Source of the DNA: an uncultured Syntrophales bacterium
Lineage (GTDB): Bacteria; Desulfobacterota; Syntrophia; Syntrophales; JADFWA01
NCBI GenBank assembly: GCA_964454305.1
Contig: CAYVXX010000001.1
Span: 65,464-129,463, forward strand
DNA: 64,000 bases
Direction: 5' to 3'
Shown: in pieces, positions 10,143 to 26,961 of the stretch
Layout of the letters: every line of letters starts with the position of its first letter
Numbering within the stretch: position 1 is the first letter of the stretch
Position numbers and translations under genes: made by a program
The notes under the pieces: model-generated
Told to the model about the DNA's origin: nothing
Database searches by the model: none
The model's input: the letters and a program-made list of their open reading frames with translations, nothing else

Positions 10143-10183
10143 TTCTTAAATACCACCTCATAAAAGTCTAAGAATTAAACATT

Positions 10184-11104
10184 TTACACCGCGTAGTCCT
10201 TCGCAAATTCCAGAAACAATTTATGATAATGCATTAAACTGAATTGCTTCTTATAAATCAAATAAAAATGTCTCTGAACGGTACAGTCCTGAATCGGCAC
10301 TTCACAAAGAACCCCCTGCTGTAATTCCCGTTTTATAGCATGAACGGAGAGGATGGAGACACCGAGGCCGGCAATGATCGCCTCTTTGACCGCTTCAGAG
10401 CTTCCCATCTCACAGACACAATTGAACATGGAAAGGCTCCTGTCAGTATTTTTACGCAAGTAGTCTTCCAGGATTTCGCGGGTAGCTGAACCCCTCTCTC
10501 TGATAACAAAGGGGGCTTTTGAAACCTCACCCAGTGTCACATATTTCTTTTTAACCCAGAGATGGTCTGCCGGTACAGCTAAAACAAGTCTGTCCTCCCA
10601 GAGGGATTCGACATGCAATCTTTTGTCAAACGTCTGTTTGCCTATAAAACCTATCTCCGCCTGATCATACAGGATCATCTCCAGGGTTTCTTCGCTATCA
10701 GAGGTTTGAACGTAAGCCCGAATATCAGGAAAAAGCTTTTTGAAATCATTCAAAAGGCGCGGAAGGATATATGTTGCCGGTATGGTGCTGGCACGGATAA
10801 AGATACTTCCTGATTCATTTTCCTTCATCCTTGAAATTTTTTCCTTTGCCTCATCTCTTAATCTGAGGATCTTTTTAGCATAATCATAAAGTATCTTCCC
10901 CTCAGGCGTTAAAAATATTCCCCTGTTTCTCCTGTTAAGAATCCTGGCGTTGACCGATTCTTCCAGATTTTTAATATGCTTGGTCATAGACGGCTGGGTC
11001 AGAAATACCTTCTTGGCAGCTCGGCTGAAGCTTCCTTCTTCAACGATACGGACAAGAGATTCCATTTGTTGAATAGTGATATTCTTGAATTGATCGTAAC
11101 TCAT
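10184..11104 (-). CDS. LysR-family transcriptional regulator, divergent from yedE
   Basis: The N-terminal HTH is MSYDQFKNITIQQMESLVRIVEEGSFSRAAKKVFLTQPSMTKHIKNLE, followed by a LysR substrate-binding domain. Start at Met10 of ORF 10184..11131. Confidence 0.85.
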   Translation of the reverse strand: MSYDQFKNITIQQMESLVRIVEEGSFSRAAKKVFLTQPSMTKHIKNLEESVNARILNRRNRGIFLTPEGKILYDYAKKILRLRDEAKEKISRMKENESGSIFIRASTIPATYILPRLLNDFKKLFPDIRAYVQTSDSEETLEMILYDQAEIGFIGKQTFDKRLHVESLWEDRLVLAVPADHLWVKKKYVTLGEVSKAPFVIRERGSATREILEDYLRKNTDRSLSMFNCVCEMGSSEAVKEAIIAGLGVSILSVHAIKRELQQGVLCEVPIQDCTVQRHFYLIYKKQFSLMHYHKLFLEFAKDYAV

Positions 11105-11131
11105 GGAAAAGTTAACTACCATAAATTTCAA

Positions 11132-11154
11132 TTATAATCAACGAAGAATTATAA
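11132..11154. promoter_or_regulatory. Candidate LysR box TTATAA-N11-TTATAA
   Basis: This dyad fits T-N11-A and lies in the LysR/yedE divergent region. A near copy (TTATAA-N11-CTATAA) is at 23579-23601. Confidence 0.4.
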
Positions 11155-11231
11155 CTATTATGAATTTGACTTATTCCTTAAATTTAGGTAGTTGCATAAG
11201 ACCATCAGATACGGGAAAGGAGACGATGATA

Positions 11232-12311
11232 ATGGCAGGTAAATTCTGGACGCAAAAAACATGGATTATTCTTGGAGGCCTGATTTTAGGTGCACTTGCA
11301 ACCCTGCTCACAAAATGGGGAAATCCTGCAAACATGGGCATCTGTGTTGCGTGTTTTTATCGTGACATTACAGGCGGACTCGGCCTGCACAGGGCAGGAG
11401 TGGTACAGTATATCAGACCGGAAATAATAGGTTTCGTATTCGGCGCTCTTATCTCAGCTTTCGCCTTCAGAGAGTTCAGACCAAAAGGGGGCTCCTCTCC
11501 GATAATACGTTTTCTGTTGGGCGCCTTTTTCATGATCGGCGCGCTGGTTTTCCTGGGCTGCCCAATCAGGGCGCTGATAAGACTTGCAGGTGGTGACCTC
11601 AACGGTATTACCGCTCTCTTAGGGATCATCGTTGGTGCATTTATCGGCATTCAGTTTTTAAAAGGTGGTTATAACCTTGGGCGGGCCGGAAGTGCATCGA
11701 AAATATCTGCCTTGATGATACCACTTATTATGCTTGGCCTTTTTCTCTTGATAGTTTTCAAACCGCATTTCCTCTTTTTCAGTCAAAAGGGGCCGGGTGC
11801 AATGCATGCTCCCATCCTGATTTCACTTATTGCAGGAATCATCGTTGGCGTCATCGCTCAAAAGACAAGAATGTGTTTCGTCGGGGGCTGGAGGGATATT
11901 ATGCTGGTTAGAGACTTCTACCTCTTCAGCGGAATCGCAGCCTTCTTTGTCGGTGTTCTGGTTTGCAATTATGCACTGGGCAATTTTGCTTCAGGATTCT
12001 ACCACTGGGGGTTTGAACATCAACCCGTTTCCCATAATAATCATTTATGGAATTTTCTTGGAATGGTACTGGCGGGCCTGACTGCAACACTTCTGGGTGG
12101 ATGTCCCCTGCGCCAGACAATCCTGGCAAGCGAGGGGGATACAGACGCTGGGATTACCATACTTGGCCTCATTGTCGGCGCTGCCTTTGCCCATAATTTT
12201 TTGCTTGCATCGAGCCCCAAAGGCCCGGGTGAATTCGGGCCCCTGGCAGTAATTATAGGTTTAATATTCTGTTCGGCTGTCGGCGTTTCAATGATGGAAA
12301 GAGGAAAATAA
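11232..12311 (+). CDS. yedE: YedE-family membrane protein (putative selenium/sulfur compound transporter)
   Basis: GNPANMGICVACFYRDITGGLG and a polytopic membrane profile. The RBS AAGGAG lies 9 nt upstream of ATG 11232 (alternative ATG 11226). Confidence 0.75.
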   Translation: MAGKFWTQKTWIILGGLILGALATLLTKWGNPANMGICVACFYRDITGGLGLHRAGVVQYIRPEIIGFVFGALISAFAFREFRPKGGSSPIIRFLLGAFFMIGALVFLGCPIRALIRLAGGDLNGITALLGIIVGAFIGIQFLKGGYNLGRAGSASKISALMIPLIMLGLFLLIVFKPHFLFFSQKGPGAMHAPILISLIAGIIVGVIAQKTRMCFVGGWRDIMLVRDFYLFSGIAAFFVGVLVCNYALGNFASGFYHWGFEHQPVSHNNHLWNFLGMVLAGLTATLLGGCPLRQTILASEGDTDAGITILGLIVGAAFAHNFLLASSPKGPGEFGPLAVIIGLIFCSAVGVSMMERGK

Positions 12312-12312
12312 C

Positions 12313-12849
12313 ATGGTCTTCGGAATAAAAAGAAAGCCCCGCTTTGAGGGAGGAGGTCTTTTTCTCTTTGAAAAGGTAGAAGATGCCATAAAAGCGGAAA
12401 GGGTTCTTAAATCGGCAGACTATATGGTCAAGCTCGTAGCGCCGCCCCCTGCTCTGAGGAAAGGATGCGACCTGGCGGTTGAGATAAATCTGGTTGAGCA
12501 GATGGGTATAGAAAGGCTTTTCAAGCAGAAAGATGTAAACTATATCGAGGTCGTCCCCATGAAGGGTAGCGGAAATCTCCTCGAAATCGTAAAGATAACC
12601 GATTTCGGTGACGCAGTAATGGTAAAGGCAGGTAATATGAAGCTTACATTTGATAAGAATACCGGAAAAATCTTGAACACCTCCGGAGGGGGCTGTCCCG
12701 ATATCCCCTATCTTCATTCCGAACTCATCGATAAAAAACTAACAGATGCACCGAGGCCGAAGGATATAGGCTTTACCTTATGCGCTCTTATGATGGACCG
12801 GGCTTTTCTTGAATGTCTGGATCTCTGGAAAAGTAAGGTGGAAAATTGA
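12313..12849 (+). CDS. DUF3343-like domain protein with a C-terminal Cys-containing extension
   Basis: The N-terminal part, LFLFEKVEDAIKAERVLKSADYMVKLVAPPPALRKGCDLAVEI, resembles the small Se/S-carrier-like DUF3343 fold. The C-terminal part carries SGGGCPDIPY. Confidence 0.5.
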   Translation: MVFGIKRKPRFEGGGLFLFEKVEDAIKAERVLKSADYMVKLVAPPPALRKGCDLAVEINLVEQMGIERLFKQKDVNYIEVVPMKGSGNLLEIVKITDFGDAVMVKAGNMKLTFDKNTGKILNTSGGGCPDIPYLHSELIDKKLTDAPRPKDIGFTLCALMMDRAFLECLDLWKSKVEN

Positions 12850-12850
12850 A

Positions 12851-13744
12851 ATGATGCTCATCTGTGGAACAGTCCCGATAAAGGGCTTCCCGCTGACGCT
12901 GGGAGAGATTAAAACTAAAGCGGGATCATTGGTCATAAATGATCTGGAAATCCCGTGCACACAAGGCACTGCCGCCCTGATCAGCGCCGCATCAGCTACC
13001 ACCTGTCATCTGAACATCACTCCACCCCGGGCATTATTAGTTGGCGACAATGGTGAAGGAAAAGGAAGTAGATTACTTTATGAGTATTTGATAAAGAATA
13101 TTTCCGAACTTTCACCGGCCGTGCTGGTACTTCACTATTGCCTTCCAGTTATGGGCTTGATGAGACGGCTGTGTGAATCTATAGAAAAATGTTCTAAAAA
13201 ACCGATTATGATCGCGGATGCATCTTCGATGTATGCAGCAAAAGCAGCAGGATTGGCGGCAAAATTTGACATCTTCACTCCGGATTTCTGTGAAATGGCC
13301 TTTTTAGCCGACCCCGATGCCACACATCCCGCTTATATCAGCAGGCACCTTTTCGATGCCGATATAACGCAGGCTTCCGAATTGGTAGCTGATGCTTATC
13401 GTAACAATAACGCAGCAAAGATGTTGCTTATTAAGGGAGCGGCTGATTATGTGGTTGAAAATGGTAAAATCCTGGACACTATTACTGCGCCTGATATACC
13501 GGAGCTTGAAGCCATAGGGGGAACGGGTGATACTATTACGGGTATGGTTTCTGCTTTTGTCTATGCTGAACTGGAATTACATCAGGCAGCAATTATTGCA
13601 ACCAGGGCAAATCGTATGGCCGGAAAATACGCACAGGCTACACCGGCTACCAGAATTCACGAAATTACTTCCCAGCTTCCGGCGGTTTTTAAGGATCATT
13701 TATGCGAGTGGAGCGGTATCTGTTATACCGCAGTTCCGGATTGA
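12851..13744 (+). CDS. Ribokinase-superfamily (YjeF_C/ThiM-like) kinase-fold protein
   Basis: LLIKGAADYVV...AIGGTGDTITGMVSAFVY resembles the GG(S/T)GD anion-hole motif of NAD(P)HX dehydratase/HMP/thiazole kinases. Start at ATG 12851, just after the upstream stop. Confidence 0.5.
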   Translation: MMLICGTVPIKGFPLTLGEIKTKAGSLVINDLEIPCTQGTAALISAASATTCHLNITPPRALLVGDNGEGKGSRLLYEYLIKNISELSPAVLVLHYCLPVMGLMRRLCESIEKCSKKPIMIADASSMYAAKAAGLAAKFDIFTPDFCEMAFLADPDATHPAYISRHLFDADITQASELVADAYRNNNAAKMLLIKGAADYVVENGKILDTITAPDIPELEAIGGTGDTITGMVSAFVYAELELHQAAIIATRANRMAGKYAQATPATRIHEITSQLPAVFKDHLCEWSGICYTAVPD

Positions 13745-13827
13745 CAGTTTTAAGATAACAGAAACCGGGTTTTCCCAGTGGCTGAAAGCGAAAGCTATTA
13801 GACAAATAAAGAAGAGAGGTGGTAGAG

Positions 13828-14043
13828 ATGAAGTATGGCGCCAGAAACCAATTGTCGGGAAAGGTAGTCGAAATCAAGAAAGGGACTTTAATGGGACAGA
13901 TAAAAGTAAAGATGCCTGGCGACTATACTATATCGTCGGTAATGACCCTGGATTCCCTGAATGATCTCGGCATAAAAGAGGGAGACAAGGTTAAGGCAAT
14001 AATTAAGGCAGTAAATGTATTGTTGGTAAAAGATGAAATTTAA
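13828..14043 (+). CDS. TOBE/Mop-domain oxyanion-binding protein
   Basis: MKYGARNQLSGKVVEIKKGTLMGQIKVKM...GDKVKAIIKAVNVLL is the typical Mop/TOBE pattern. Confidence 0.75.
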   Translation: MKYGARNQLSGKVVEIKKGTLMGQIKVKMPGDYTISSVMTLDSLNDLGIKEGDKVKAIIKAVNVLLVKDEI

Positions 14044-14063
14044 TAAGTGAGGAGGGAACAGCA

Positions 14064-14285
14064 ATGGTTGAGATTGATGTAAGAGGTTTTGGTTGTCCTA
14101 TTCCCGTGGTGAAAACAAAAAAAGCTATTGAGGGAAACCCGAACGAAGAGATAATTGTCCTTGTAGAAACTGCGGTCTCAAAGGAAAATGTATCCCGGCT
14201 TGCAGAAAGCAAAAAATATTCAGTACGGGTGGAAGAAACAGCCGGGGATGAGTATCGAGTATTGCTTACACCTCCAAAAAACTAA
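14064..14285 (+). CDS. TusA/SirA-like sulfur(selenium)transferase
   Basis: IDVRGFGCPIPVVKTKKAI carries the CPxP active-site motif. Confidence 0.8.
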   Translation: MVEIDVRGFGCPIPVVKTKKAIEGNPNEEIIVLVETAVSKENVSRLAESKKYSVRVEETAGDEYRVLLTPPKN

Positions 14286-14314
14286 GACGCAATTAAGAAG
14301 AGATACCAAGGATT

Positions 14315-14926
14315 ATGGCTAAAGAAATCGATGTTAGAGGCCTCCCCTGTCCTCGACCGGTTATCAGTACCAAAAAGGCACTGGAAGAAATAAAAGAGGG
14401 CACAATTACCGTCCTGGTGGATAATCCGGAAAGTAAAGAGAATGTGCAACGATTTGCTATAAGCCAGGGGTGTGAGGTCAAGGTAGAAGAAAAAGAGGGT
14501 ATCTTTTACCTGCAAATTTCCAAGAGTTACCCTGGTAAGAAAGAAAAGGGATTAGAGGCAGAAGTTGAAAAGGAGTTCGATAAGACAATGAATGCGGATG
14601 TTGTCTGTATTACTACCGACCTGTTTGGAACAGGAAATGAGGAATTGGGAGAAATACTGATGAAGGCGTTCCTTAATACCCTGTGGGACTACCAGCCCCG
14701 ACCGGCCAAGTTATTGTTTATCAACAGAGGCGTAATGCTGACCACCGAAGGTTCTGATGTCCTGGAGGTCTTGGAACTTTTAGAAAAAGAGGGTGTTGAA
14801 ATATTTTCCTGCGGTACCTGCCTGGCCCATTATGGAATAAAAGACAAATTGAGGATCGGCAAAGCAACCAACATGTATGAGATGGTTGATGCCCTCTTAA
14901 CTGCCGGTAAGGTGGTCAATATATAA
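14315..14926 (+). CDS. yedF: YedF-type selenium metabolism protein (TusA-like N-domain + DsrE-like C-domain)
   Basis: IDVRGLPCPRPVISTKKAL at the N-terminus. The ~110-aa C-terminal domain ends in FSCGTCLAHYG. The 203-aa architecture matches YedF. Confidence 0.75.
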   Translation: MAKEIDVRGLPCPRPVISTKKALEEIKEGTITVLVDNPESKENVQRFAISQGCEVKVEEKEGIFYLQISKSYPGKKEKGLEAEVEKEFDKTMNADVVCITTDLFGTGNEELGEILMKAFLNTLWDYQPRPAKLLFINRGVMLTTEGSDVLEVLELLEKEGVEIFSCGTCLAHYGIKDKLRIGKATNMYEMVDALLTAGKVVNI

Positions 14927-14985
14927 GAAGTAACTATCGGACATAAAAGGAATAATCGCCCTGCAAGGGCAATGCAAAAACCCTT

Positions 14986-15145
14986 CCATAAGGAGTTTGG
15001 TCATGTATGAATTTTTCGGCTTTACCTGAGCTGCGATCGAAATTCTACCTGGGTTAGGTAGGCACAGGGCCAAACTGGAAACTCAATTTTCCTCCCTTCA
15101 TTTCTAATCATCACGTTTCAAACCTTTCCGGTCTGGCTCATATGC
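14986..15145 (+). promoter_or_regulatory. Structured leader, copy 1, with embedded sORF MYEFFGFT (15003-15029)
   Basis: About 85-90 percent identical by eye to 23657-23815. The outer stem AGTTTGGTC/GGCCAAACT, the inner stem GAATTT/AAATTC and the hairpin CTACC-N7-GGTAG are all conserved. The RBS AAGGAG lies 7 nt upstream of the sORF. Confidence 0.5.
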
Positions 15146-15361
15146 TTCTCTTTGAGTCAGACTTCGATCTCAAGAGAATAGCCGGGGTTCAAGCTTATTG
15201 CGATGCTTTGAAGAGGCTACAGAATTGTCTACAACTGCTTTGATACCTCAACATTGCATACACAAGAAATCCCATACCAGGACCCGAACCATGCTGTTGA
15301 ATTTACCCGCAGGCGGGAAGGTCTGCAGGATTACTAAATAAAACTTATACAAGGAAACAGG

Positions 15362-15630
15362 ATGAGTAAAGTCCATGGCCTGCGGATTAAAGAATTAATG
15401 AACGAGAAGCCGCATGTTAAAACAGGTTTTGGGAGAAGGAACGATTCTCTTTGCCGATGGTGTGGCACGAAATCCCTGCGTTCACGGGTTGTTGGAAGAG
15501 GTAAGAGGTACTCGGACAAAAGATTATAATACCTGAAGACCCGCAGATGGTGGGAGCTCTGGGGGCGGCCATTCTGGCGGGCAAAACAGGCACCCTGACC
15601 GGTAGAGGGGAAGTGGTTATCATGTTTTGA
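15362..15630 (+). pseudogene. Remnant fusing the 5' end of the dehydratase-like gene to the 3' end of its activator ATPase gene
   Basis: 15362-15410 matches 24039-24090 (MS.VHGLRIKELM.EK). 15436-15600 matches 25786-25925 (IFAGGVARNPC...PQMVGALGAA). The frame is broken, and there is a 7-nt AGAGGTA tandem duplication. Confidence 0.8.
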
Positions 15631-15684
15631 TAAGAGTTTGTGGTCAGCTCACGATAATTTTAAGAAAAATTTCTCCAAAAAGTA

Positions 15685-15731
15685 TTGACAGAAGGGTAAT
15701 ATTCGGGTATATGTTATGTCAAAAATGACAT
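15685..15731 (+). promoter_or_regulatory. Candidate hydA promoter (TTGACA-N17-TATATG) followed by a perfect palindrome ATGTCA-AAAA-TGACAT
   Basis: TTGACA at 15685-15690, TATATG at 15708-15713, palindrome at 15716-15731. Confidence 0.4.
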
Positions 15732-15829
15732 GAGCTAAAAATAGCATAGCCAGTTCTCTTCCATCTAAGAAAGTTGGAAGACTGGTGAAAATTAAAGATT
15801 TGCGTAAAAAACAAAGAAGGGAGGAAATC

Positions 15830-17083
15830 ATGAAACAAATTGAAAATGTTTTAGAATTAAGCAATGCACCTGATTCAAAAGACTATGATAACGTCTTTTT
15901 TATTCAGGTGGACGAGAACAAGTGCCAACAATGCGGTGTATGCGAAACTCACTGCGCGACAGGGGCAATTCAACCAAGGGATGGAAAGGACGGCCCCCGG
16001 ACGGTGGTGGATCCCGCGGCATGCATGAACTGCGCTCAGTGTCTCATCAACTGTCCATACGGGGCAATTTATGAGGGTGTTTCATTTGTAGATGAGATTT
16101 TCAAGGCCCTTAAAGATCCGGATACGATCGTTGTCTCCATGCCCGCGCCTGCTGTTCGTTACGGCCTTGGCGAGCCGTTCGGCTATCCTACGGGGACCTA
16201 TGTGGGGGGGAAATTGTTTGCGGCGCTCCGAAAGCTTGGTTTCGATCGCATCTGGGACAACCAGATGACCGCCGATGTTACCATTATGGAAGAAGGAACC
16301 GAGCTTGTCGGCAGACTTACCGGCAAGATCAAGAAACCCCTTCCGCAATTTACCTCCTGCTGCCCAGGATGGATCAAATTTATGGAGACGTTTTATCCCG
16401 AGCTGTCTCCCCACCTGTCCACATGCAAGTCACCCATCGCTATGCTGGGACCTCTCTCAAAGACGTACGGCGCCGAGGTTTCAGAGACACCGGCAAAAAA
16501 TATGTATACGGTTTCCATTATGCCCTGCGTGGCCAAAAAGTATGAGGGGCTGAGGCCTGAGATGGCTGACAGCGGCTTCAGAGATATTGATGCCACCATA
16601 ACAACCCGGGAGCTTGCCTATATGATCAAGAAGGCCGGCATCGATTTTAAAAGCCTTCCCGACGAGAAACCGGATTTTGAACTGGGAGAATCCACAGGCG
16701 CCAGCACCATCTTCAGCAACAGCGGCGGCGTCATGGAGGCAGCCCTTCGTCTTGCCTACGAGGTCGTATCCGGTAAAAAACTAAAAGATCCTGATATTAA
16801 AGCTGTTCGAACCCATAAAGGCGTCAAAGCAGCCAAGATAAATATTCCCAAATTCGGTGATCTGAGTGTCTGTGTAGTAAGCGGACTTGGCAACACGATA
16901 CCCATTCTTGAGGATATCAAAAAAGGGAAGTGTAAATACCACTTTATCGAGGTTATGGCATGCACTGGCGGTTGTATCAATGGCGGCGGGCAGCCTCTTT
17001 TCCCCGATGCGCGCGAGGCCTCTTTGTTCAGAACAATAATTGCAACAATGAATAGAAGATTTAACATGAGAAGAGTGGCTTAA
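15830..17083 (+). CDS. hydA: Periplasmic [FeFe]-hydrogenase large subunit
   Basis: Two ferredoxin-type Cys clusters are present, along with H-cluster motifs TSCCPGW, MPCVAKKYE and ACTGGCINGGGQP. It is collinear with the Desulfovibrio-type HydA as I recall it. ATG 15830 has the RBS GGGAGG; GTG 15785 is less likely. Confidence 0.9.
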   Translation: MKQIENVLELSNAPDSKDYDNVFFIQVDENKCQQCGVCETHCATGAIQPRDGKDGPRTVVDPAACMNCAQCLINCPYGAIYEGVSFVDEIFKALKDPDTIVVSMPAPAVRYGLGEPFGYPTGTYVGGKLFAALRKLGFDRIWDNQMTADVTIMEEGTELVGRLTGKIKKPLPQFTSCCPGWIKFMETFYPELSPHLSTCKSPIAMLGPLSKTYGAEVSETPAKNMYTVSIMPCVAKKYEGLRPEMADSGFRDIDATITTRELAYMIKKAGIDFKSLPDEKPDFELGESTGASTIFSNSGGVMEAALRLAYEVVSGKKLKDPDIKAVRTHKGVKAAKINIPKFGDLSVCVVSGLGNTIPILEDIKKGKCKYHFIEVMACTGGCINGGGQPLFPDAREASLFRTIIATMNRRFNMRRVA

Positions 17084-17096
17084 CAGGAGGAGTGAC

Positions 17097-17426
17097 ATGA
17101 AAGATATTGCTAAAATGACGAGACGTCAATTCGTCAAAATTTCCGGAATTACTGTTGGGGCAGTATTGTATAGTTGGAATTTCGCTAAATTTACTTATGC
17201 GGCAGTAAAAGACTATCTTACTGAAAGGCAGACATCCGTCTATGTGCATGACACAAAAATGAAATTCAGGAAGTCCCAGGACAGTCCGGCGGTTCACAAG
17301 ATTTACAAGGATTTTCTTCATGAACCTTGTTCTCATATGTCGCACCGGCTCCTGCACACCCATTACATTGACCGTTCCGGCAGGGTAAAAAGGCTTAAGG
17401 AAGGTGGTCTCAAACTCAAAGTGTAA
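17097..17426 (+). CDS. hydB: [FeFe]-hydrogenase small subunit with twin-arginine signal
   Basis: MTRRQFVKISGITVGAV is a Tat motif, and the gene lies directly after hydA. Confidence 0.85.
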   Translation: MKDIAKMTRRQFVKISGITVGAVLYSWNFAKFTYAAVKDYLTERQTSVYVHDTKMKFRKSQDSPAVHKIYKDFLHEPCSHMSHRLLHTHYIDRSGRVKRLKEGGLKLKV

Positions 17427-17493
17427 AATATTTTAATCTGTAAGGCAGCCTGCGGTGAGGATTTCATCTGAACCCAAGGGCGGGGAGAAAATA

Positions 17494-17531
17494 AAAAACC
17501 CAGCCCTTTTAACTCAGGCTGGGTTTTTTAT
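17494..17531 (+). terminator. Intrinsic terminator after hydB
   Basis: AAAAACCCAGCC / GGCTGGGTTTTT stem followed by a T-run. Confidence 0.8.
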
Positions 17532-17543
17532 TTGGAAGGAAAA

Positions 17544-19173: not shown

Positions 19174-20453
19174 ATGAGACACCAAAAGGGAATAGATTGC
19201 AAATTGCCCTCTTCGGCAGGACAAATGTGGGAAAATCGAGCCTGCTCAATCTTATCATGGGACAGGATATAGCCATCACATCGCCCATCGCGGGAACAAC
19301 CACCGATATTGTGGAAAAGGCGATGGAGCTCCTCCCCCTGGGGCCGGTACTTTTTATCGATACGGGAGGCCTGGATGACGTATCCATCCTTTCAACCCTG
19401 AGACTGAAGAAGACTCATAACATCTTTGACAGGGCGGATGTCGTCCTGCTCGTTACGGAACCTGATATATGGACAGATTTTGAAGAGGAAGTACTGCGCG
19501 AAACAGAGAAGAGAAAAACTCCCACAGTCGTTGTGATAAACAAGATAGATATAAGAAACCCGGCACCTGAATTTGTAACACGGATTTCAGAAAAGACCGA
19601 ACGTATGGTTCTCGCATCCAGCGTAGATTGGGGGAAAAGAGATGACTATCTCGAGCCCCTGAAGAGGCACCTGATTGAAATCTGCCCGGATGATTTCATC
19701 CAGCCACCGCCGATAATCGGAGACCTTCTCACTCCGGGAGGACTGGCCGTTCTCGTCGTTCCCATAGACCTTGAGGCACCAAAGGGGAGACTCATACTGC
19801 CCCAGGTTCAGACGATAAGGGACGCGCTGGATAGCGACGCGGCGGCACTGATTGTCAAGGAAAGAGAACTATCCTATACATTGAGCACCTTAAACAGGCC
19901 ACCCGACATCGTCGTCTGCGATTCCCAGGTTGTCCTGAAGATGTGTGCTGACACGCCGAAAGATGTTTCAGCCACCACATTTTCTATCCTTTTTGCAAGA
20001 TACAAAGGGGACCTGGTAGAAGCGGCAAGGGGCGCCGCCTTCATAGAAAGCTTAAAACCAGGCGACAAGGTATTGATAGCGGAGGCATGTTCCCATCATC
20101 CTGTCCAAGACGATATTGGAAGAGTAAAGATACCAAGATGGCTGCGGCAGTATGTGGGAGCTGACCTGGATATTGATGTTTGCGCCGGAAGAGACTATCC
20201 GGAAAACCTGAGAGAATACTGCCTTATTATTCACTGCGGGGCATGCATGCTGACCAGAAGAGAGATGTTGGGCAGGATTCAAAAGGCGTGTGAGGCAAAC
20301 GTGCCAGTCACAAATTATGGAGTAGCCATCTCCCATCTCCAAGGGGTGTTGAAAAGAACACTGACTCCCTTCCCCGCGGCACTGGTTGCCTTTGACAAGA
20401 AAATGAAAGAAATCAAGGAGGATTTAAAAAATGAACGTAGGATCAACTCTTAA
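19170..20453 (+). CDS. hydF: [FeFe]-hydrogenase maturation GTPase HydF
   Basis: The GTPase P-loop is FGRTNVGKSSLLN. C-terminal Cys residues are present (CSHH...HCGAC). There is an ATGA overlap with the upstream gene. Confidence 0.85.
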   Translation: MNETPKGNRLQIALFGRTNVGKSSLLNLIMGQDIAITSPIAGTTTDIVEKAMELLPLGPVLFIDTGGLDDVSILSTLRLKKTHNIFDRADVVLLVTEPDIWTDFEEEVLRETEKRKTPTVVVINKIDIRNPAPEFVTRISEKTERMVLASSVDWGKRDDYLEPLKRHLIEICPDDFIQPPPIIGDLLTPGGLAVLVVPIDLEAPKGRLILPQVQTIRDALDSDAAALIVKERELSYTLSTLNRPPDIVVCDSQVVLKMCADTPKDVSATTFSILFARYKGDLVEAARGAAFIESLKPGDKVLIAEACSHHPVQDDIGRVKIPRWLRQYVGADLDIDVCAGRDYPENLREYCLIIHCGACMLTRREMLGRIQKACEANVPVTNYGVAISHLQGVLKRTLTPFPAALVAFDKKMKEIKEDLKNERRINS

Positions 20454-21924
20454 CAAATTAGAGTTAAACTGGGCAAAAAGTGTTATCGAAGAGGATGAAA
20501 TAACAAGGTACATGATCAACGGAAAAGACTTTATATCCGACGATAAAATATGGGGGGAAATTGCAAGTAATAAAAATCCCGAATCTCAAAAAGTAAGAGA
20601 GATCCTTCAAAAATCCCTTTCCATAGAAACACTCAGACCGGATGAAACCGCAGCGCTACTGAATGTGCAAGATGAAGAGTTATGGAATGAAATGTTTGAG
20701 GTGGCAGGTGAGGTGAAGAGAAAGGTTTATGATAACCGTATCGTAACATTTGCGCCTCTCTACTTTGGCAATCTTTGCGTTAACGATTGTCTCTACTGCG
20801 CTTTCAGGAAAGACAATCTAAAGGAAGTGAGAAATCGATTATCTCTGAATCAGATACGAGAGGAAACAAAGGCGATGATTTCCATGGGCCATAAGCGTCT
20901 TATGCTGGATTGTGGAGAACATCCCAGCATGGATGCCGATTACATTGCCGATGTGCTCCGTACTATCTACGAAACAAAAATTGGAAGGGGTGAAATAAGA
21001 AGAATTAATATAAATGTTGCCTCTATGAGCATTGAAAAGCTCAGGATGCTAAACGAAGTGGGCATAGGGACATATCAGGTATTTCAGGAGACATACCACC
21101 ATAAAACCTATAGGGATGTTCATCCCAACCCCGAAGGACCAAAATCAAATTATGGGTGGAGACTCTATTCTCTGCATAGGGCAATGGATGCAGGCATAGA
21201 TGATGTGGGCATAGGCGTGCTCTTCGGTCTGTATGACTGGAGATTCGAGGTTATGGGTTTGTTGTACCATGCCTTGAATTTAGAAGAGCAATTTGGGGTA
21301 GGGCCTCATACTATTTCAATTCCAAGACTACAGCCGGCAGAGAACACGCCCTTTATAAGCTCAACCGATTATAGGGTTTGTGATGATGACTTTAAAAAAC
21401 TGGTCACTATAATAAGGCTTTCAGTTCCATACACGGGTCTTATTCTAACGGCAAGGGAAAGCGCGCAGCTACGCCGTGAGGTTATCCCGCTGGGGGTTAC
21501 TCAAGCGGATGCAGGTACAAGAATCGGTATTGGTACCTATAGCGAGAGGTATGATAAGCAGGAGGCAAAAAGGCAGCAGTTTCTTCTGGGTGATCCAAGA
21601 AGCCTGGATGAGTTCATAAAAGAGCTTGCCGAGATGGGGTATATTACATCTTTCTGCACAGCGGGCTACAGATGCGGGAGGACTGGCGAACTTATTATGA
21701 AGCTCCTGAAATGCGGACAGGAGGGTCGTTTCTGCAAGCTCAACGCGGTGCTCACCTTCAGGGAATGGCTGGATGATTTTGCCAGTGAGGAGACAAAGAA
21801 GACGGGCGAAAAAGTAATAGAAAAAGAGATGGATGAAATCAAAGAACAAATGCCTTCTATATACCCGAAATTGATGGAATACTGCGAGAGGATTGAAAAT
21901 GGTGAAAGGGATCTCTATTTCTAA
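20431..21924 (+). CDS. hydG: [FeFe]-hydrogenase maturase HydG (radical SAM tyrosine lyase)
   Basis: The CVNDCLYCAF radical-SAM motif and a C-terminal Cys-rich domain (CTAGYRCGRTG). Confidence 0.85.
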   Translation: MNVGSTLNKLELNWAKSVIEEDEITRYMINGKDFISDDKIWGEIASNKNPESQKVREILQKSLSIETLRPDETAALLNVQDEELWNEMFEVAGEVKRKVYDNRIVTFAPLYFGNLCVNDCLYCAFRKDNLKEVRNRLSLNQIREETKAMISMGHKRLMLDCGEHPSMDADYIADVLRTIYETKIGRGEIRRININVASMSIEKLRMLNEVGIGTYQVFQETYHHKTYRDVHPNPEGPKSNYGWRLYSLHRAMDAGIDDVGIGVLFGLYDWRFEVMGLLYHALNLEEQFGVGPHTISIPRLQPAENTPFISSTDYRVCDDDFKKLVTIIRLSVPYTGLILTARESAQLRREVIPLGVTQADAGTRIGIGTYSERYDKQEAKRQQFLLGDPRSLDEFIKELAEMGYITSFCTAGYRCGRTGELIMKLLKCGQEGRFCKLNAVLTFREWLDDFASEETKKTGEKVIEKEMDEIKEQMPSIYPKLMEYCERIENGERDLYF

Positions 21925-22195
21925 GGAAACCCTGACAGAAAAATTTGCCTGCATAGCAGACCTTGTTAAGGAAAAATATGGTGTTAATATATGGTTTGCC
22001 AAGATATTAGGGGAAAGGTGGTCATATATTGCAGGACAGAGAGAAGTGGAAATTTCCCTTCTTCCCTCGGAGCGCACCCGGCTGAATAAACGATTCGGCA
22101 TTGTTTCGTATAGATGGGAGGAAATCCCCGCCAATGAAAGAGAAGCGCTTCTATCACCACTGAAAGAGCAAATAAAGATATATGAACAGGGATGA
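21893..22195 (+). CDS. Hypothetical 100-aa protein translationally coupled between hydG and hydE
   Basis: The ORF overlaps the hydG end by 32 nt and the hydE start by 14 nt, with ordinary amino-acid composition. No motif recognised. Confidence 0.45.
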   Translation: MKMVKGISISKETLTEKFACIADLVKEKYGVNIWFAKILGERWSYIAGQREVEISLLPSERTRLNKRFGIVSYRWEEIPANEREALLSPLKEQIKIYEQG

Positions 22196-23195
22196 AATCT
22201 TATACTATTTGAAAACCTCAGGCACAGATGAAGAACTGTTTCAGAAGGCTGATGAAGTAAGAAAAAAACATTGCGGTGATGAAGTACACATCCGGGGCAT
22301 CATCGAATTTTCCAGCTATTGCTGCCGTAACTGTCTTTATTGCGGACTTCGAAAAGACAACAACAATCTGAACAGATACCGAATGGATGAGGAAGAAATA
22401 ATAGGCCTTGCGCTACAGATCACGTCATTCGGCATCAAAACCATTGTCCTTCAATCGGGTGATGATTTTTATTTCACCCAATCCATGCTCTGCCGGATCA
22501 TAGAGCGCATAAAAGAACATGCTGATGTTGCAATTACCCTGAGTGTTGGGGAGAGACCATTTGAGGACTACAGGGCGTTTAAACTATCTGGAGCAGACCG
22601 CTACCTGCTCAAGCATGAAACAGCCAGTGAAGAGCTGTACAAAAAGTTTCACCCCTACCAGTACCTTAAACACAGGATACGCACTCTGGAATATTTACGG
22701 GAAACAGGATACCAGATTGGAACCGGAAACATTGTAGGACTTCCAGGTCAAAGCATAAATGATCTTTATGCGGATATCCTGCTGCTGAAGGAACTGGATA
22801 CGGATATGTTGTCCATCGGTCTTTTTATTCCTCAGCACGATACGCCTTTGTCACAGGTTCCGCAAGGAGATTTATCATTAGCGTTGAGAGTTCTTGCACT
22901 GGCACGAATCGTGACCAGAGACTCTCATATGCCCGTGACTACGGCAATTGCAACCGCCGATCCTGAAAGGGGGCTTTTCCGTGGATTAAAGACAGGAGTA
23001 AATGTCATTATGCCCGATTTCACGCCTGACCGTCACAGAAAAGATTACACAATCTACGACAACAAGGCACACATAACATTAGAAAAAGCTAAAGAAACAA
23101 TCCTGAAGGCAAAGAGGGTTATTTCATCTCACAAAGGTGATTCTCTCAAATACTCACCAATAAAATTTTCAAAGTCTGTAGGATCAAGAAAATAG
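22182..23195 (+). CDS. hydE: [FeFe]-hydrogenase maturase HydE (radical SAM)
   Basis: CCRNCLYCGLRKDN radical-SAM motif, BioB-like fold, 337 aa. Confidence 0.85.
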   Translation: MNRDEILYYLKTSGTDEELFQKADEVRKKHCGDEVHIRGIIEFSSYCCRNCLYCGLRKDNNNLNRYRMDEEEIIGLALQITSFGIKTIVLQSGDDFYFTQSMLCRIIERIKEHADVAITLSVGERPFEDYRAFKLSGADRYLLKHETASEELYKKFHPYQYLKHRIRTLEYLRETGYQIGTGNIVGLPGQSINDLYADILLLKELDTDMLSIGLFIPQHDTPLSQVPQGDLSLALRVLALARIVTRDSHMPVTTAIATADPERGLFRGLKTGVNVIMPDFTPDRHRKDYTIYDNKAHITLEKAKETILKAKRVISSHKGDSLKYSPIKFSKSVGSRK

Positions 23196-23215
23196 CAGTT
23201 AATCGTATTCAGCTT

Positions 23216-23348
23216 TTATCCAATATCTGATAATTCGAGCATGGTTACTTCTTTTTCCGATCTGATTCGTCCCCACAAATCCAGTTCGTAGCTGCCAGCA
23301 ATGTCAAGGGAACTATCTTTTGTCGTCGAGGTTTTTGCAACAGTCGCG
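23216..23348 (-). pseudogene. Fragment of an outer-membrane efflux (NodT/TolC-family) gene
   Basis: Own translation: ...SSLDIAGSYELDLWGRIRSEKE... then stop. The ELDLWGRIR motif is characteristic of OMF proteins. Only about 44 codons remain. Confidence 0.45.
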
Positions 23349-23365
23349 TTATGTCAGATCCGGGC

Positions 23366-23551
23366 TTAGTGTTTAATATAAGTAAGGCCAGCCTCATGGA
23401 AAAATGCATCCAGATTCTTAGTGTACTTGGTCAGAAACGGTTGGGTCAGAAATACCTTCCTGGCAGCACAGCTGAAGTTTCCTTTTTCAACAATAAGGAC
23501 AAGAGATTCCATCTGTTGAATAGTGATATTCTTGAATTGATCGTAACTCAT
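23366..23551 (-). pseudogene. Truncated duplicate of the LysR regulator 5' end
   Basis: MSYDQFKNITIQQMESLVLIVEKGNFSCAARKVFLTQP matches the first ~38 aa of the 10184..11104 protein, then diverges and stops. Confidence 0.8.
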
Positions 23552-23656
23552 AAATAACTTAACTATCATAAATTTCAGTTATAATTAGCTACGAACTATA
23601 ACTATTATGAATTTGACTTATTCCCTAAATTTAGGTAGTCGCATAAAACCATATTA

Positions 23657-23815
23657 AAAGGAGTTTGGCCATGTATGAATTTTTCGGCTTTACCTGAACC
23701 ACGATTCAAATTCTACCCGGGTTCGGTAGGCACGGGGCCAAACTGAAAAACCAATTCCCTTCCTTTTATTTCTAATCATCACTTTTCAAATCTTTTCAGT
23801 CTGGCTCATGCGCTT
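23657..23815 (+). promoter_or_regulatory. Structured leader, copy 2, with embedded sORF MYEFFGFT (23671-23697)
   Basis: The RBS AAGGAG lies 7 nt upstream of the ATG. Stems are AGTTTGGCC (23662-70)/GGCCAAACT (23736-44), GAATTT (23677-82)/AAATTC (23708-13) and CTACC-N7-GGTAG (23713-29). It precedes the intact dehydratase-like operon. Confidence 0.5.
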
Positions 23816-23889
23816 TCTTAATCGGATTCAGTCGCAAACAGAGTGATGTGCGAGTGCTTCTAAAATAAAAACTTACAGGAGGAAAGAGA

Positions 23890-25167
23890 ATGAGCGAAGA
23901 TTACAAAAGTATGTGGGAAAATTTAGGACTTGATCTTGCGGCGCACGATGCCCTGCTGGAGGTTCTTGGTAAAGGCTATCAGGATATTTATCTCGCCCAG
24001 AAGAACCGGCCGGAGGGAATGGGATATTTTGATTTCGTCATGAGCGAAGTTCACGGCCTGCGAATCAAAGAATTGATGGACGAAAAGGCGGCCGGCCGAA
24101 AGGTAATCGGATCCTTCTGCGTCTTTGTGCCCGAGGAGATCGTGCGGGCTGCCGATGCTACACTGGTTGGTCTTTGTACAGGAGCTGATTTTGCAATGGA
24201 AGAAGTGGAAAAACTTCTGCCCCGCAATACCTGCTCCCTCATCAAGTCGGCCTTCGGATTCAATCTGGCAAAAGTCTGTCCCTACATTGAGTGTGCGGAC
24301 ATGATTGTGGGAGAGAATACCTGCGATGGTAAGAAGAAGTCCTATGAGACACTGAATGCTCTCGTTTCTAATCTCTATGTTATGGATCTGCCACAGGTAA
24401 AATCCGCTGAAGGAAAAGCTCTTTTAAAAGCAGAATATCTCCGCTTCAAGAAGGCTGTTGAAAAACTTACGGGCATAACCATTGATGCGGATAAACTCAA
24501 GAAAGGTATTGAGATCGTCAACAACAAGCGGAAGGTTATTCACAGGCTTTCATGTCTGCGAAAAGCAAACCCGGCCCCAATCTCAGGACTGGACGCACTT
24601 TTGGCTAATCAGGTCTATTTCTATGATGACCCTGTACGTTTTACCGATTCGGTTAATAATATCTGCGACGAACTGGAAGCACGTATCGAGAAGAAGGAGG
24701 GGGTCGTTCCGGAATCAGCTCCAAGAATCTTAATATCCGGCTGCCCCATGGCCGTTCCCAACTGGAAGCTCCCCTGGATTATAGAGACTGCCGGTGCCGT
24801 TATTGTGGGGGAAGAGTCATGTGTGGGTGAGCGGGGCACGCGCAACCTGACCGATGACTCCGGAAATACTCTGGATAAACTTATGGAGGCCGTTGTTGAC
24901 CGCTATTTCAAGGTAGACTGCGCCATCTTCACACCAAATCCGGATCGTTTCGATCATATTGTTGAGATGGTTGAAAAATATCAGGCAGACGGCGTCATCC
25001 ATTACGGTCTGCAATTCTGCCAGCCCTATCTCATGGAAGCCATGCTTGTTGAAAAAGCCCTTGAAGCAAAGAATATTCCCACACTTAGGATTGATACGGA
25101 CTACAGCATGGAGGATGTGGGACAGCTCAAAACAAGAGTCGAGGCGTTTGTTGAAATGATAAGATAG
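23890..25167 (+). CDS. 2-hydroxyacyl-CoA-dehydratase/BCR-superfamily protein, single-subunit (double-cubane-cluster-protein-like)
   Basis: A 425-aa HGD-D-type protein with conserved Cys (FCVFVPEE, GLCTGADF, NTCSLIK, ENTCDGKKK). It is paired with only an activator ATPase, the architecture recalled for DCCP/DCCP-R. Confidence 0.7.
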   Translation: MSEDYKSMWENLGLDLAAHDALLEVLGKGYQDIYLAQKNRPEGMGYFDFVMSEVHGLRIKELMDEKAAGRKVIGSFCVFVPEEIVRAADATLVGLCTGADFAMEEVEKLLPRNTCSLIKSAFGFNLAKVCPYIECADMIVGENTCDGKKKSYETLNALVSNLYVMDLPQVKSAEGKALLKAEYLRFKKAVEKLTGITIDADKLKKGIEIVNNKRKVIHRLSCLRKANPAPISGLDALLANQVYFYDDPVRFTDSVNNICDELEARIEKKEGVVPESAPRILISGCPMAVPNWKLPWIIETAGAVIVGEESCVGERGTRNLTDDSGNTLDKLMEAVVDRYFKVDCAIFTPNPDRFDHIVEMVEKYQADGVIHYGLQFCQPYLMEAMLVEKALEAKNIPTLRIDTDYSMEDVGQLKTRVEAFVEMIR

Positions 25168-25181
25168 GAGAGGCGGCCTGA

Positions 25182-25931
25182 ATGCGACTTGCCGGTATCG
25201 ACATCGGTTCCCGAACCATTGAACTGGTAGTGTTAAACGAAAGAGGGATTATTGAAAGCAAGCAGGCAGAGTCCGGCTTTGATCCGATGACGCAGACAAA
25301 AGAACTCCTTGAAGGGGTTCAGTATGACCGCATTATGGCTACCGGTTATGGACGTCATCTCTTTGAACTTTCTTTTGATGCCCCAACAGTTACGGAGATC
25401 AAGGCCTATGCTGTGGGCGCAAGGTCTCTGTTTCCTGAAGTCAGGACAATACTGGATATCGGAGGTCAGGACTCCAAGGCTATTTCGGTTAGTGATGAGG
25501 GAAAAGTTGTTAAGTTCGAGATGAACGACAGATGTGCAGCCGGGACTGGAAAATTTTTGGAAATTATGGCGACCACTCTCGGCTTTAGTTTAGATCAGTT
25601 TGGTGTGGAGGCACTTCAGGCAACCAAAGATATCCGGATAAATAGTATGTGTACCGTGTTTGCGGAATCGGAAGTCACCTCCCTTGTAGCTAAAGGAGTT
25701 AACCGGCGAGATATCGCCCTGGGTCTGCACCACTCTGTAGTACGCCGGGCCGTGGGAATGTTAAAAAGGGTCTCGGTTAAAGAACCTATCATCTTTGCCG
25801 GGGGCGTGGCAAGAAATCCATGCACGCGCCATCTGTTGGAAGAGGTACTCGGACAAAAGATTGTGATACCTGAAAACCCGCAGATGGTGGGAGCACTTGG
25901 TGCGGCATTGCTCGCAGGTGAAAAGGGATAA
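25182..25931 (+). CDS. BcrAD/BadFG-type activator ATPase (CoA-enzyme activase / DCCP-R-like)
   Basis: The sugar-kinase/actin fold motif AGIDIGSRTIELVV, plus NDRCAAGTGKFLE and MCTVFAESE cluster-bridging Cys motifs. Confidence 0.85.
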   Translation: MRLAGIDIGSRTIELVVLNERGIIESKQAESGFDPMTQTKELLEGVQYDRIMATGYGRHLFELSFDAPTVTEIKAYAVGARSLFPEVRTILDIGGQDSKAISVSDEGKVVKFEMNDRCAAGTGKFLEIMATTLGFSLDQFGVEALQATKDIRINSMCTVFAESEVTSLVAKGVNRRDIALGLHHSVVRRAVGMLKRVSVKEPIIFAGGVARNPCTRHLLEEVLGQKIVIPENPQMVGALGAALLAGEKG

Positions 25932-25989
25932 ATTTTATTTGTATAGGTAAAATGACACTATTTGTTTACATTAAAGAAAGAGGATAAAA

Positions 25990-26880: not shown

Positions 26881-26927
26881 AGCGCCGAAAAGGCCGAGGC
26901 CCTCATCAAGATCATAGCTTTCTGTGG

Positions 26928-26961
26928 GAAAGGCGTTTCAAAGAATGGACGTTGGCCTTTC
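26928..26961 (+). promoter_or_regulatory. Intercistronic hairpin after the SBP gene
   Basis: GAAAGGC (26928-34) pairs with GCCTTTC (26955-61). This is the usual position for differential mRNA stability or partial termination in ABC operons. Confidence 0.4.

Follow-up and report, generated by a model that had tools for sequence, protein, structure and literature searches.

A 64,000-nucleotide stretch of DNA from an uncultured Syntrophales bacterium (contig CAYVXX010000001.1 of assembly GCA_964454305.1; hereafter the window) carries two copies of a selenium-related regulatory region, one on either side of an [FeFe]-hydrogenase module. Each copy retains a predicted operator/promoter of a selenium-responsive LysR regulator (LysR_Se) and an RNA leader. 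We found that the arrangement is best explained jointly by diverged, reciprocally decayed duplicate heads and by a selenocysteine (Sec)-sensing leader layered on LysR_Se control, an explanation to which we give a probability of roughly 0.6. An earlier reading of the window (the original prediction) had noted a "structured leader" in both copies. Conservation shows that this leader is a short upstream open reading frame (uORF) with a putative UGA selenocysteine codon and a hairpin resembling a selenocysteine insertion sequence (SECIS), and that the element is widespread beyond this genome.

In both window leaders the sequence AAGGAG-N7-ATG TAT GAA TTT TTC GGC TTT ACC TGA would encode the peptide MYEFFGFT-U, and the hairpin CUACC-CGGGUUC-GGUAG begins 15 nt after the UGA. 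BLASTN found the same element in ten loci fetched with the neighbouring reductase gene. We then scanned metagenome contigs with a pattern that fixed only ACCTGA, the hairpin and six bases beyond it, and obtained at least 118 unique instances; the family counts that follow refer to the instances listed. A start codon lies exactly eight codons before the UGA, a position that the pattern does not fix, in 99 of 118 instances (ATG 93, GTG 6), and 93 of the 96 with a start at this position have a Shine-Dalgarno (SD)-like motif. The family peptide reads M-[YNKHQ]-x-F-F-G-F-T-U, with codons 6 and 7 varying almost only synonymously (GGC 82, GGT 12; TTT 73, TTC 22). Furthermore, in six variants with an insert of ~110 nt the frame is open from the ATG through to the UGA. 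In 88 of 118 instances the uORF ends 10 codons past the UGA, at a UAG within the 3′ arm of the hairpin.

The family hairpin, CUACC-CGGGUUY-GGUAG, starts 15-17 nt after the UGA. One of its pairs covaries in an alignment of 93 leaders (AU 66, GU 24, GC 3); at the pair that contains the UAG, G-U outnumbers G-C 24 to 3, which retains the stop codon at the cost of stability. The loop CGGGUUY resembles the loop CGGGA in the SECIS of the window's own selD gene. With an in-frame UGA, a hairpin within the ~11-20 nt seen for bacterial SECIS elements and a G-rich apical loop, the structure has the sequence features of a putative SECIS. Likewise, the SD-led short uORF with its start and its candidate regulatory codon has the features of a leader peptide that controls attenuation. 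A profile built without the window sequences (nhmmer) recovered exactly two leaders in the window, copy 2 at E 1e-23 and copy 1 at E 1e-21. A third candidate, at 94-162 on the minus strand (E 0.039), has neither UGA nor hairpin and was rejected.

Both leaders look maintained, judging by a related genome that we call relative A, in which LysR and the reductase are both 93% identical to those of the window. Leader 2 is identical to that of relative A at 166 of 166 positions, next to a reductase gene at 91.7%. Leader 1 differs from its counterpart at 7 of 105 core positions, all of them at family-variable sites, and the relative A leader 1 keeps an intact uORF (MFEFFGFT-U) and hairpin next to gene remnants that are wrecked.

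Pairing statistics on the 93-sequence alignment predict two mutually exclusive structures, one of which involves the uORF. In the first, helix P1, uORF codons 4-9 including the UGA pair with a segment X, located 3′ of the hairpin (P2); for P1 and P2 together, 94.4% of the alignment cells are in standard pairs, compared with 30-65% when the partner columns are slid. In the second, the same strand X pairs with a conserved block Y (UUUUCAGUCYGGCUC) ~60 nt downstream, with 69-73% of cells paired versus 30-55% when slid. At X:Y, cells in which both partners have changed number 79 versus 38 +/- 4.7 in shuffles, with none of 500 shuffles reaching the observed value, a type of statistic that relatedness among the sequences inflates; one pair, for example, is A-U in 65 leaders and G-C in 11. 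In constrained folding, with the ribosome-covered region made unpairable, X:Y forms in 73 of 92 leaders when the A-site is at the UGA, in 25 of 92 when the leader is free and in 3 of 92 when the ribosome is at the UAG.

The six variants with the ~110-nt insert (L094, L131, L133, L150, L168 and L007) carry it in a bulge of the P1 helix; it adds ~38 codons ending in ...LTG(F/Y)T-UGA, and its peptide and RNA are themselves conserved between loci.

The RNA between X and Y is poor in G: the 50 nt that follow X hold 4-9% G compared with 25% in the control, along with 26-33% C and 40-46% U, a composition that is like that of a Rho utilization (rut) site but in a tract that is short and U-rich. An intrinsic terminator is absent from both leader copies of the window, and a terminator-like hairpin occurs in only 5 of 96 family members; thus the leader lacks the 3:4 intrinsic terminator (GC hairpin plus U-run) of classical leader-peptide attenuators. 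A candidate sigma-54 promoter in block Y was rejected by eye, its GG/GC spacing being 3 nt too short.

Next we examined the genes downstream of the leader. Among the instances listed, the leader always lies 5′ of selenium-related genes and on the same strand. In 27 instances the gene for tRNA-Sec (selC) follows ~138 nt downstream, and in 11 loci the order is leader, selC and then SelB (TIGR00475). Elsewhere the leader lies directly upstream of the yedE cassette, selD, the double-cubane reductase, an ExtI-type selenite/tellurite porin (NF040900), a PstS-family binding protein with an ABC ATPase, YqeB, or VhuD-like, HdrA-like and DsrK-like redox proteins. In a close relative it precedes an FdhA with Cys at the Sec position (ARICHSSTV).

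Three of these loci deserve separate description. The close relative (L096:1-8100) has the order reductase, activase, leader, FdhA(Cys), FdhB, NifS and SelD, the leader before FdhA being a second, internal one; at that place the window has an ABC transporter and an MBL-fold protein. Another contig (L100) has two leaders, at 1794-1985 and 4056-4247, located before selD-yedF and before an activase/reductase pair. At L149:6930-7130 a decayed tRNA-Sec-like sequence (GGGGTAAAAGGGCTGGGTGCC...) lies between the leader and yedE, a remnant which suggests that leader-selC may be the primordial arrangement and that the other targets were gained by recombination.

Based on this anatomy, the leader is probably a selenocysteine-sensing leader-peptide attenuator that acts through Rho and is layered on LysR_Se control. 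Under this proposal, the leader would report the supply of Sec-tRNA(Sec) and SelB. A ribosome waiting at the UGA would cover uORF codons 4-9, leaving X free to pair with Y. Once Sec is inserted, the ribosome would run on and, in most family members, stop at the UAG in the 3′ arm of the hairpin, over X; afterwards X would re-pair with the uORF region and Y would stay free. That a tRNA gene is a frequent target argues for an output at the level of transcription or RNA processing, and the lack of an intrinsic terminator together with the rut-like tract makes Rho-dependent termination the leading candidate, so that the output would be transcription read-through versus Rho-dependent termination. 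The polarity is most likely ON under selenocysteine shortage, because the predicted regulon consists of uptake genes, Sec machinery and the Cys-type FdhA. We also speculate that the invariant G-F-T before the UGA slows release by RF2.

Tentatively, and at somewhat below even odds, these features can be extended to the Desulfobacterota as a portable Sec sensor, in which the wait at the UGA would switch an antiterminator-like X:Y pairing and thereby Rho-dependent read-through into a selenium-starvation regulon, jointly with LysR_Se. The regulon proposed as part of this extension would comprise selC-selB, selD, yedE/yedF, the ExtI porin, the ABC importer, yqeB, the double-cubane reductase and Cys isoforms of selenoenzymes. 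If true, it would be the first of the leader-peptide attenuators to sense recoding in place of an ordinary codon.

Several observations weigh against this proposal. Whole-leader folding energies are no better than those of shuffled sequences (z -0.73 and -0.62); P1 is mostly invariant and so covaries little; the search pattern itself fixed part of X and the hairpin, and related sequences inflate the shuffle statistics. In the window, leader copy 1 now lies between yedF and hydA and has no obvious target. Furthermore, the spacer in the window lineage is 1 nt shorter, which moves the uORF stop to 25 codons past the UGA, within the G-poor tract, and X has changed in this lineage such that it can pair with the uORF's own SD; the logic of the family may therefore not transfer unchanged to the window. 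Finally, the polarity is read solely from the identity of the downstream genes, among which the Sec-containing SelD fits either direction.

Two other readings of the leader have to be considered. The element could be a small selenoprotein gene encoding a selenopeptide of 19-34 amino acids, or a SECIS decoy that titrates SelB or represses translation like the element in the Escherichia coli selAB 5′ untranslated region (UTR). The conserved peptide M-x-x-FFGFT-U and a hairpin that looks like a genuine SECIS are consistent with this, and SECIS-based autoregulation of sel genes reportedly has precedent (Thanbichler and Bock 2002). PMC8124441 mentions "SelB autoregulation" in E. coli. However, the peptide past the Sec is dictated by the hairpin and is unconserved: it is in another frame in the window lineage, and 9 of 25 residues differ between the window copies. 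The constant position 5′ of selenium-related genes on the same strand also speaks against these readings, and the covarying X:Y pairing and the G-poor tract would serve no purpose in a plain gene. In addition, the tRNA gene found downstream in 27 cases means that translational repression cannot be the general output. We consequently consider a selenopeptide gene or decoy rather improbable. A stronger case, if still an unlikely one, can be made for the same anatomy with reversed polarity, in which Sec insertion would keep the ribosome translating and transcription going, so that the genes are ON with selenium. A similar coupling has been seen within fdhF(Sec) of Treponema primitia (Matson et al. 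2013, PMC3892789); SelD, one of the genes under the leader, is a selenoprotein; and in the window lineage a ribosome that translates the longer uORF into the G-poor tract would shield a rut site there. Yet in 88 of 118 instances the uORF ends upstream of that tract, and the targets, mostly uptake (YedE, ExtI porin, ABC binding protein), Sec machinery (selC, selB, selD) and the Cys-type FdhA, are the set expected of a starvation response.

The second layer of control is the LysR_Se operator/promoter. Our alignment holds 12 sequences (10 loci), namely two each from the window and relative A, one from a second related genome (relative B, LysR 94% identical) and seven from loci with LysR orthologues of 73-78% identity. 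Two blocks are invariant, TA.CATAAATTTC..TTATAAT, which holds an ATAA-N7-TTAT dyad, and TTATAACTATT.TGAATTTGAC.TATT, which holds the -35-like TTGAC; both window copies keep every invariant position of this ~60-bp conserved block. The -35- and -10-like hexamers were assigned by eye, a consensus scan having failed to call them. The intergenic region of copy 2 is 98% identical to that of relative A, compared with 91.7% for the adjacent reductase gene. In other genomes, LysR_Se orthologues of 73-94% identity adjoin the same operator, and in five other loci the LysR orthologue is divergent from a leader ~150 nt away.

The original prediction held that one LysR protein sees near-identical operators in both places, which the conservation renders plausible: each copy keeps a predicted operator/promoter, so that one regulator, the only intact LysR_Se, could plausibly serve the two in trans, and binding at the two operators is a reasonable inference.

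We next turned to the duplication itself. Self-BLASTN of the window resolved four collinear blocks between copy 1 and copy 2, with E values from 1e-5 to 2e-84, which makes this a segmental duplication: two collinear homologous segments on one replicon, far above chance. The two units that the original prediction had defined, unit A (the LysR 5′ end and the divergent intergenic region) and unit B (the leader, reductase and activase genes), were thereby recovered, with coordinates shifted by at most ~15 bp, as were the junction strings it had quoted, which pairwise alignment located in the sequence. Unit A of copy 1 comprises LysR codons 1-47 and the intergenic region; between copies, 149 of 170 positions are identical in the coding part and 66 of 74 in the intergenic part.

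The decay is complementary, as had been proposed. Copy 1 has the intact LysR gene (289.9 bits against NF040786, cut-off 250), while in copy 2 the gene is truncated: homology extends over 47 codons from the ATG at 23551 (positions 1-38 of the 60 in the HTH_1 model), 9 of the 47 residues are replaced, and unrelated sequence and a stop follow (ORF 23366-23569). Conversely, unit B of copy 1 is a wreck, in which the start of the reductase gene is fused to the 3′ end of the activase gene and the frame is broken. There the reductase (DCCP) ribosome-binding site (RBS) and ATG are kept at 15334-15364 and joined in frame to codon ~52. We attribute this 147-bp deletion to a direct repeat, ATGAGCGAAG, found at codons 1 and 49 of the intact gene. 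At ~15413 the sequence jumps from the reductase remnant to the final ~50 activase codons, and the 7-nt tandem duplication noted before (AAGAGGT/AAGAGGT, 15496-15509) breaks the frame. Between leader and remnant, at 15153-15333, we found no convincing similarity to copy 2; only the reductase RBS and ATG align.

Between the copies, hydA, hydB, hydF, hydG and hydE were found as anticipated, followed by the fragment at 23216-23348. This fragment lies on the minus strand, and its translation has a NodT/OMF-like motif, SYELDLWGRIRS; going by this motif rather than by a hidden Markov model (HMM), we take it to belong to the OMF/NodT family. The surrounding junk region, 23196-23408, is 93.4% identical to relative A.

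Comparison with the two relatives places the duplication in time. In relative A a single contig of 58.9 kb holds the two copies. On the copy 1 side it matches window 10179-21101 collinearly at 91.7%, with leader 1 and the broken genes within the match. The copy 2 side, which recurs in a 58.6-kb JGI contig from a different sample, comprises the junk region and the LysR stump, followed by the intergenic region, leader and reductase. It is thus largely shown that the duplication predates the split of the window genome and relative A. The two window copies (76-88% identical) are more diverged from each other than the window is from relatives A and B (90-94%). In relative A, hydE and the LysR stump are set apart by a further ~11 kb, which encodes an rve integrase, and relative B, which in the same flanks reads LysR-yedE-SeScar-CarbK-TusA-SelD-rpsT-lptE-leuS, lacks window 14274-31220, the whole 17-kb interval; at the edges of this interval no repeats or microhomology were seen. 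These differences bear out the view of an accessory segment prone to recombination. As the original prediction had noted, no mobility genes are visible: within 10.9-32.3 kb we found no transposase or integrase, terminal repeats, target-site duplication or tRNA attachment site. The window interval is consequently not a recognizable mobile element or genomic island.

Some further observations concern the same region. The ~11-kb insertion of relative A (L081:1-9000) encodes the rve integrase, an acetyltransferase, MarR and an MMPL transporter, and its right edge carries a second copy of the final 34 bp of hydE. Window 14064-15630, the stretch with TusA, yedF, leader 1 and the decayed genes, matches relative A (L209) at 97-99%, whereas its flanks match at 88-96%, which suggests recent recombination between the two lineages. 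The LysR stump at 23409-23551 is 97.9% identical to relative A (L081), compared with 91.7% for the adjoining functional reductase gene; regulatory sites within the stump or a recent exchange of the region may be the reason. Relative B (L211) is rearranged downstream of leuS (window 35809-57480), its matches jumping to 53610-53787(-), 57406-57477(-) and 43143-45100.

One claim was not borne out. The selenium cassette had been said to sit precisely at the A/B junction of copy 1, as if it had landed there, and copy 2 of relative A holds remnants of the same cassette. Between its unit A and its leader we found 65 bp from the CarbK/TOBE spacer together with the 3′-terminal ~205 bp of yedF. These are 83.1% and 84.7% identical to the relative's own copy 1, where unit A is 84.8%. 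Being as diverged as unit A, all three appear to be paralogous sequence of one age, and the cassette was therefore deleted from copy 2 rather than inserted into copy 1. Window copy 2 equals that of relative A minus ~300 bp, with the join at an AAG microhomology (...CCATATTAAAAG/GAGTTTGGCC). Hence the duplicated unit, largely shown by these alignments, would have extended from inside LysR through the operator/promoter, the yedE..yedF cassette, the leader, the reductase and the activase. Reciprocal deletions would then have left copy 1 with LysR and the cassette, without most of the reductase and activase, and copy 2 with the reductase, the activase and ABC-NifS-SelD, without the cassette and most of LysR. 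The cis-regulatory modules, operator/promoter and leader, are kept in both. The duplication itself is thus an ordinary, if neat, case of reciprocal decay.

The alternatives to this history differ in weight. An assembly artefact, whether a chimeric join or a mis-resolved repeat, is scarcely credible: two short-read Logan contigs do have their starts at window 23522 and 23595, within the second copy of unit A, but assemblers would not confuse copies that diverge by 12-24%, a 161-kb ENA contig matches the window at 100% over 21,278 bp across unit B of copy 1, the hydrogenase module and copy 2, and the two-copy layout of relative A and the JGI contig with the copy 2 half repeat the arrangement. 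We also consider it improbable that the A/B arrangement of copy 2 is ancestral and that the 3.8-kb yedE..yedF cassette was inserted at the junction of copy 1. The window junction is clean to a few bases, other genomes have LysR directly divergent from the leader with nothing between, and L149 has the order LysR-intergenic region-leader-yedE, all of which speak for insertion. Against this, the remnants in relative A, 83-85% identical to its own copy 1, are old paralogous sequence and not a recent import, and the cassette flanks show no target-site duplication, inverted repeats or mobility gene.

A weightier rival, which we nevertheless rate as clearly less probable than not, is that copy 2 (reductase, ABC, NifS and perhaps the hyd module) came as a homologous selenium island from a moderately diverged relative, through lateral transfer or recombination, and then decayed against the resident copy. 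The absence of the 17 kb from relative B, with its compact layout in the same flanks, and the left end of copy 2, where the LysR stump abuts the OMF fragment and not the activase, count against duplication within the genome and leave island acquisition as the alternative. The copies, moreover, are less alike than the window and its relatives are, these modules are extensively shuffled among genomes, and relative A has its integrase-bearing insertion at this very spot. On the other hand, the truncated LysR keeps its promoter-proximal end, as expected at the left boundary of a tandem duplication, the window interval has no mobility gene, tRNA attachment site or flanking repeat, and a single deletion in relative B is equally simple. 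In-genome duplication, with loss in relative B at a later stage, is a candidate history rather than an established one.

Table 1. Features of the interval, the intact operon and the repeat blocks in the window.
Feature	Position	Strand	Details
LysR_Se, selenium metabolism-associated LysR regulator, intact	10184-11104	-	NF040786 289.9 bits; Pfam HTH_1 + LysR_substrate
Predicted operator/promoter copy 1	11117-11194	+	dyad CATAAATTTCAATTATAAT 11120-11138; TTATAACTATTATGAA 11149-11164; -35-like TTGACT 11166-11171; -10-like TAGTTG 11189-11194
Selenium cassette: yedE, Se/S carrier (DUF3343), Carb_kinase-like, TOBE/Mop, TusA, yedF	11226-14926	+	Pfam + NCBIfam
Leader copy 1	14986-15152	+	uORF 15003-15107, UGA 15027-15029, TAA 15105; P2 15045-15061; X 15065-15082; G-poor tract; Y 15124-15139
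Decayed unit B copy 1	15334-15630	+	reductase RBS/ATG, codons ~52-67, activase 3′ end
[FeFe]-hydrogenase module: hydA, hydB, TM1266-like gene, aspartase-like lyase, hydF, hydG, hydE	15785-23195	+	Pfam, gene calls
Junk region with presumed OMF/NodT-like fragment (23216-23348)	23196-23408	-	translation SLDIAGSYELDLWGRIRSEKE
Predicted operator/promoter copy 2	23564-23641, in unit A 23409-23652		dyad 23567-23585; CTATAACTATTATGAA 23596-23611; TTGACT 23613-23618; TAGTCG 23636-23641
Leader copy 2	23654-23819	+	uORF 23671-23775, UGA 23695-23697, TAA 23773; P2 23713-23729; X 23733-23751; Y 23792-23807
Double-cubane reductase (the "dehydratase-like" gene of the original prediction)	23890-25167	+	NF040772, 471.4 bits, cut-off 350
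ATP-dependent activase	25182-25931	+	TIGR00241, 238.2 bits, cut-off 125.4
Amino-acid-type ABC transporter	25990-29166	+	Pfam
MBL-fold protein	between ABC transporter and NifS-like gene	+	Pfam
NifS-like protein	30120-31241	+	Pfam
SelD	31234-32286	+	Sec codon UGA 31285-31287; SECIS 31299-31313; start overlaps end of NifS-like gene
Repeat block, unit A	10962-11205 vs 23409-23652		88.1%, 244 bp, E 2e-84 (window self-BLASTN)
Repeat block, leader	14977-15152 vs 23645-23819		83.5%, 176 bp, E 2e-46 (window self-BLASTN)
Repeat block, reductase piece	15362-15412 vs 24040-24090		80%, 51 bp, E 1e-5 (window self-BLASTN)
Repeat block, activase piece	15414-15569 vs 25758-25906		75.6%, 156 bp, E 4e-25 (window self-BLASTN)

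The intact regulator is a member of LysR_Sec_metab (NCBIfam NF040786; LysR_Se) by whole-protein HMM score; its ATG is at 11104, with in-frame upstream starts as far as 11131. In the cassette, YedE scores 488.7 bits against TIGR04112 and YedF 230.8 bits against TIGR03527, and further Pfam matches are PF11823, PF01256, PF03459 and PF01206. The intact operon behind copy 2 spans 23890-32286 on the plus strand, from the reductase through SelD. SelD itself is a selenoprotein that reads HGAG-U-ACK, with its own SECIS AGGUC-CGGGA-GACCU. ARAGORN found no tRNA-Sec (selC) in the 64-kb window, so the selC of this genome lies elsewhere.

The window carries two adjacent tRNA-Glu(CTC) genes and a tRNA-Leu(GAG) gene, at 57089-57238 and 60349-60435. 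Other short direct repeats, 84-97% identical, are 356-429/4771-4846, 6000-6038/7441-7479 and 57445-57480/60269-60304, the first pair being part of a ~150-185-bp element that is also present twice in relatives A and B. In the clade of the reductase and activase (74-93% identical), YedE, YedF, SelD or selC adjoin the pair in about one third of 80 genome loci (L001-L080), a neighbourhood that fits a selenium-related substrate for the double-cubane reductase. Published work already connects selenium genes with this reductase/activase pair (PMC5322559; bioRxiv 10.1101/2022.07.06.499078).

Selenium sensing in bacteria is poorly understood, the known pieces being LysR_Se/HrsM, the SECIS-like element of E. 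coli selAB and the fdhF(Sec) coupling. A leader that gauges how well the cell can decode UGA as Sec would, if true, be a direct sensor of selenium status. It marks out a candidate selenium regulon of sulfate reducers and syntrophs, with the enigmatic selenium-linked double-cubane reductases and candidate selenium importers among its members, and so offers handles on their function. Short and recognizable from sequence, it can also serve as a marker when selenium-regulated genes are annotated in metagenomes. Selection on operator and leader would also account for both decayed copies keeping their heads. Over the window, Rfam 15 yields only tRNAs at the gathering threshold and no match to the leader even at E<=10, and NCBIfam has no family for the uORF peptide. 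The searchable literature, reviews of prokaryotic selenium metabolism included, describes no such Sec-codon leader, uORF, attenuator, upstream element of selC or LysR_Se operator, which is absence of evidence only.

Among the closest known systems are the transcription attenuators trpL, hisL and leuL of E. coli, which the leader resembles in its predicted layout. They share a short SD-led uORF carrying a codon whose decoding is limiting, a region 1 (the uORF) that pairs with region 2 (X) or leaves region 2 to pair with region 3 (Y), and a uORF stop that puts the terminating ribosome over region 2. In contrast, the codon sensed here would be a single UGA whose decoding depends on SelB, Sec-tRNA(Sec) and a SECIS hairpin placed between region 1 and region 2, the 3:4 intrinsic terminator is missing (5/96), and a tRNA gene would be controlled as often as operons are. 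With the leaders of tnaC-tnaA, mgtL-mgtA and mgtCBR, where a uORF governs Rho-dependent termination, it has in common that the ribosome's position on a leader ORF would gate an unstructured C-rich, G-poor tract in place of an intrinsic terminator, whereas its signal would be selenocysteine decoding and not tryptophan, proline or Mg2+; the role of Rho is suggested here by base composition only.

Thanbichler and Bock reportedly described, in 2002, a SECIS-like element in the E. coli selAB 5′ UTR that serves as a feedback sensor of the SelB/Sec-tRNA complex; it is said to have no UGA, to lie outside any uORF and to repress initiation of selA translation. Both elements place a SECIS-type hairpin upstream of genes for Sec machinery, but the hairpin of the leader follows an in-frame UGA in a predicted mini-ORF and is itself followed by a platform for alternative pairing. 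In Treponema primitia, fdhF(Sec) shows selenium-dependent transcription by translational coupling (PMC3892789). There as here, UGA/SECIS decoding would set how far transcription proceeds; the effect in T. primitia takes place inside a selenoprotein gene, and the present element would be a dedicated, portable leader before non-selenoprotein genes and selC.

LysR_Se and HrsM are selenium-responsive LysR regulators (Lin et al. 2015, PMC5322559), and the window regulator, a member by HMM score, is likewise divergent from selenium genes; the operator sequence and its second copy beside a LysR stump are not described there. Finally, the two collinear copies, with each gene surviving in one copy only, follow the logic of duplication-degeneration-complementation, with the difference that the part retained twice is the cis-regulatory head (operator/promoter and leader) and not coding sequence.

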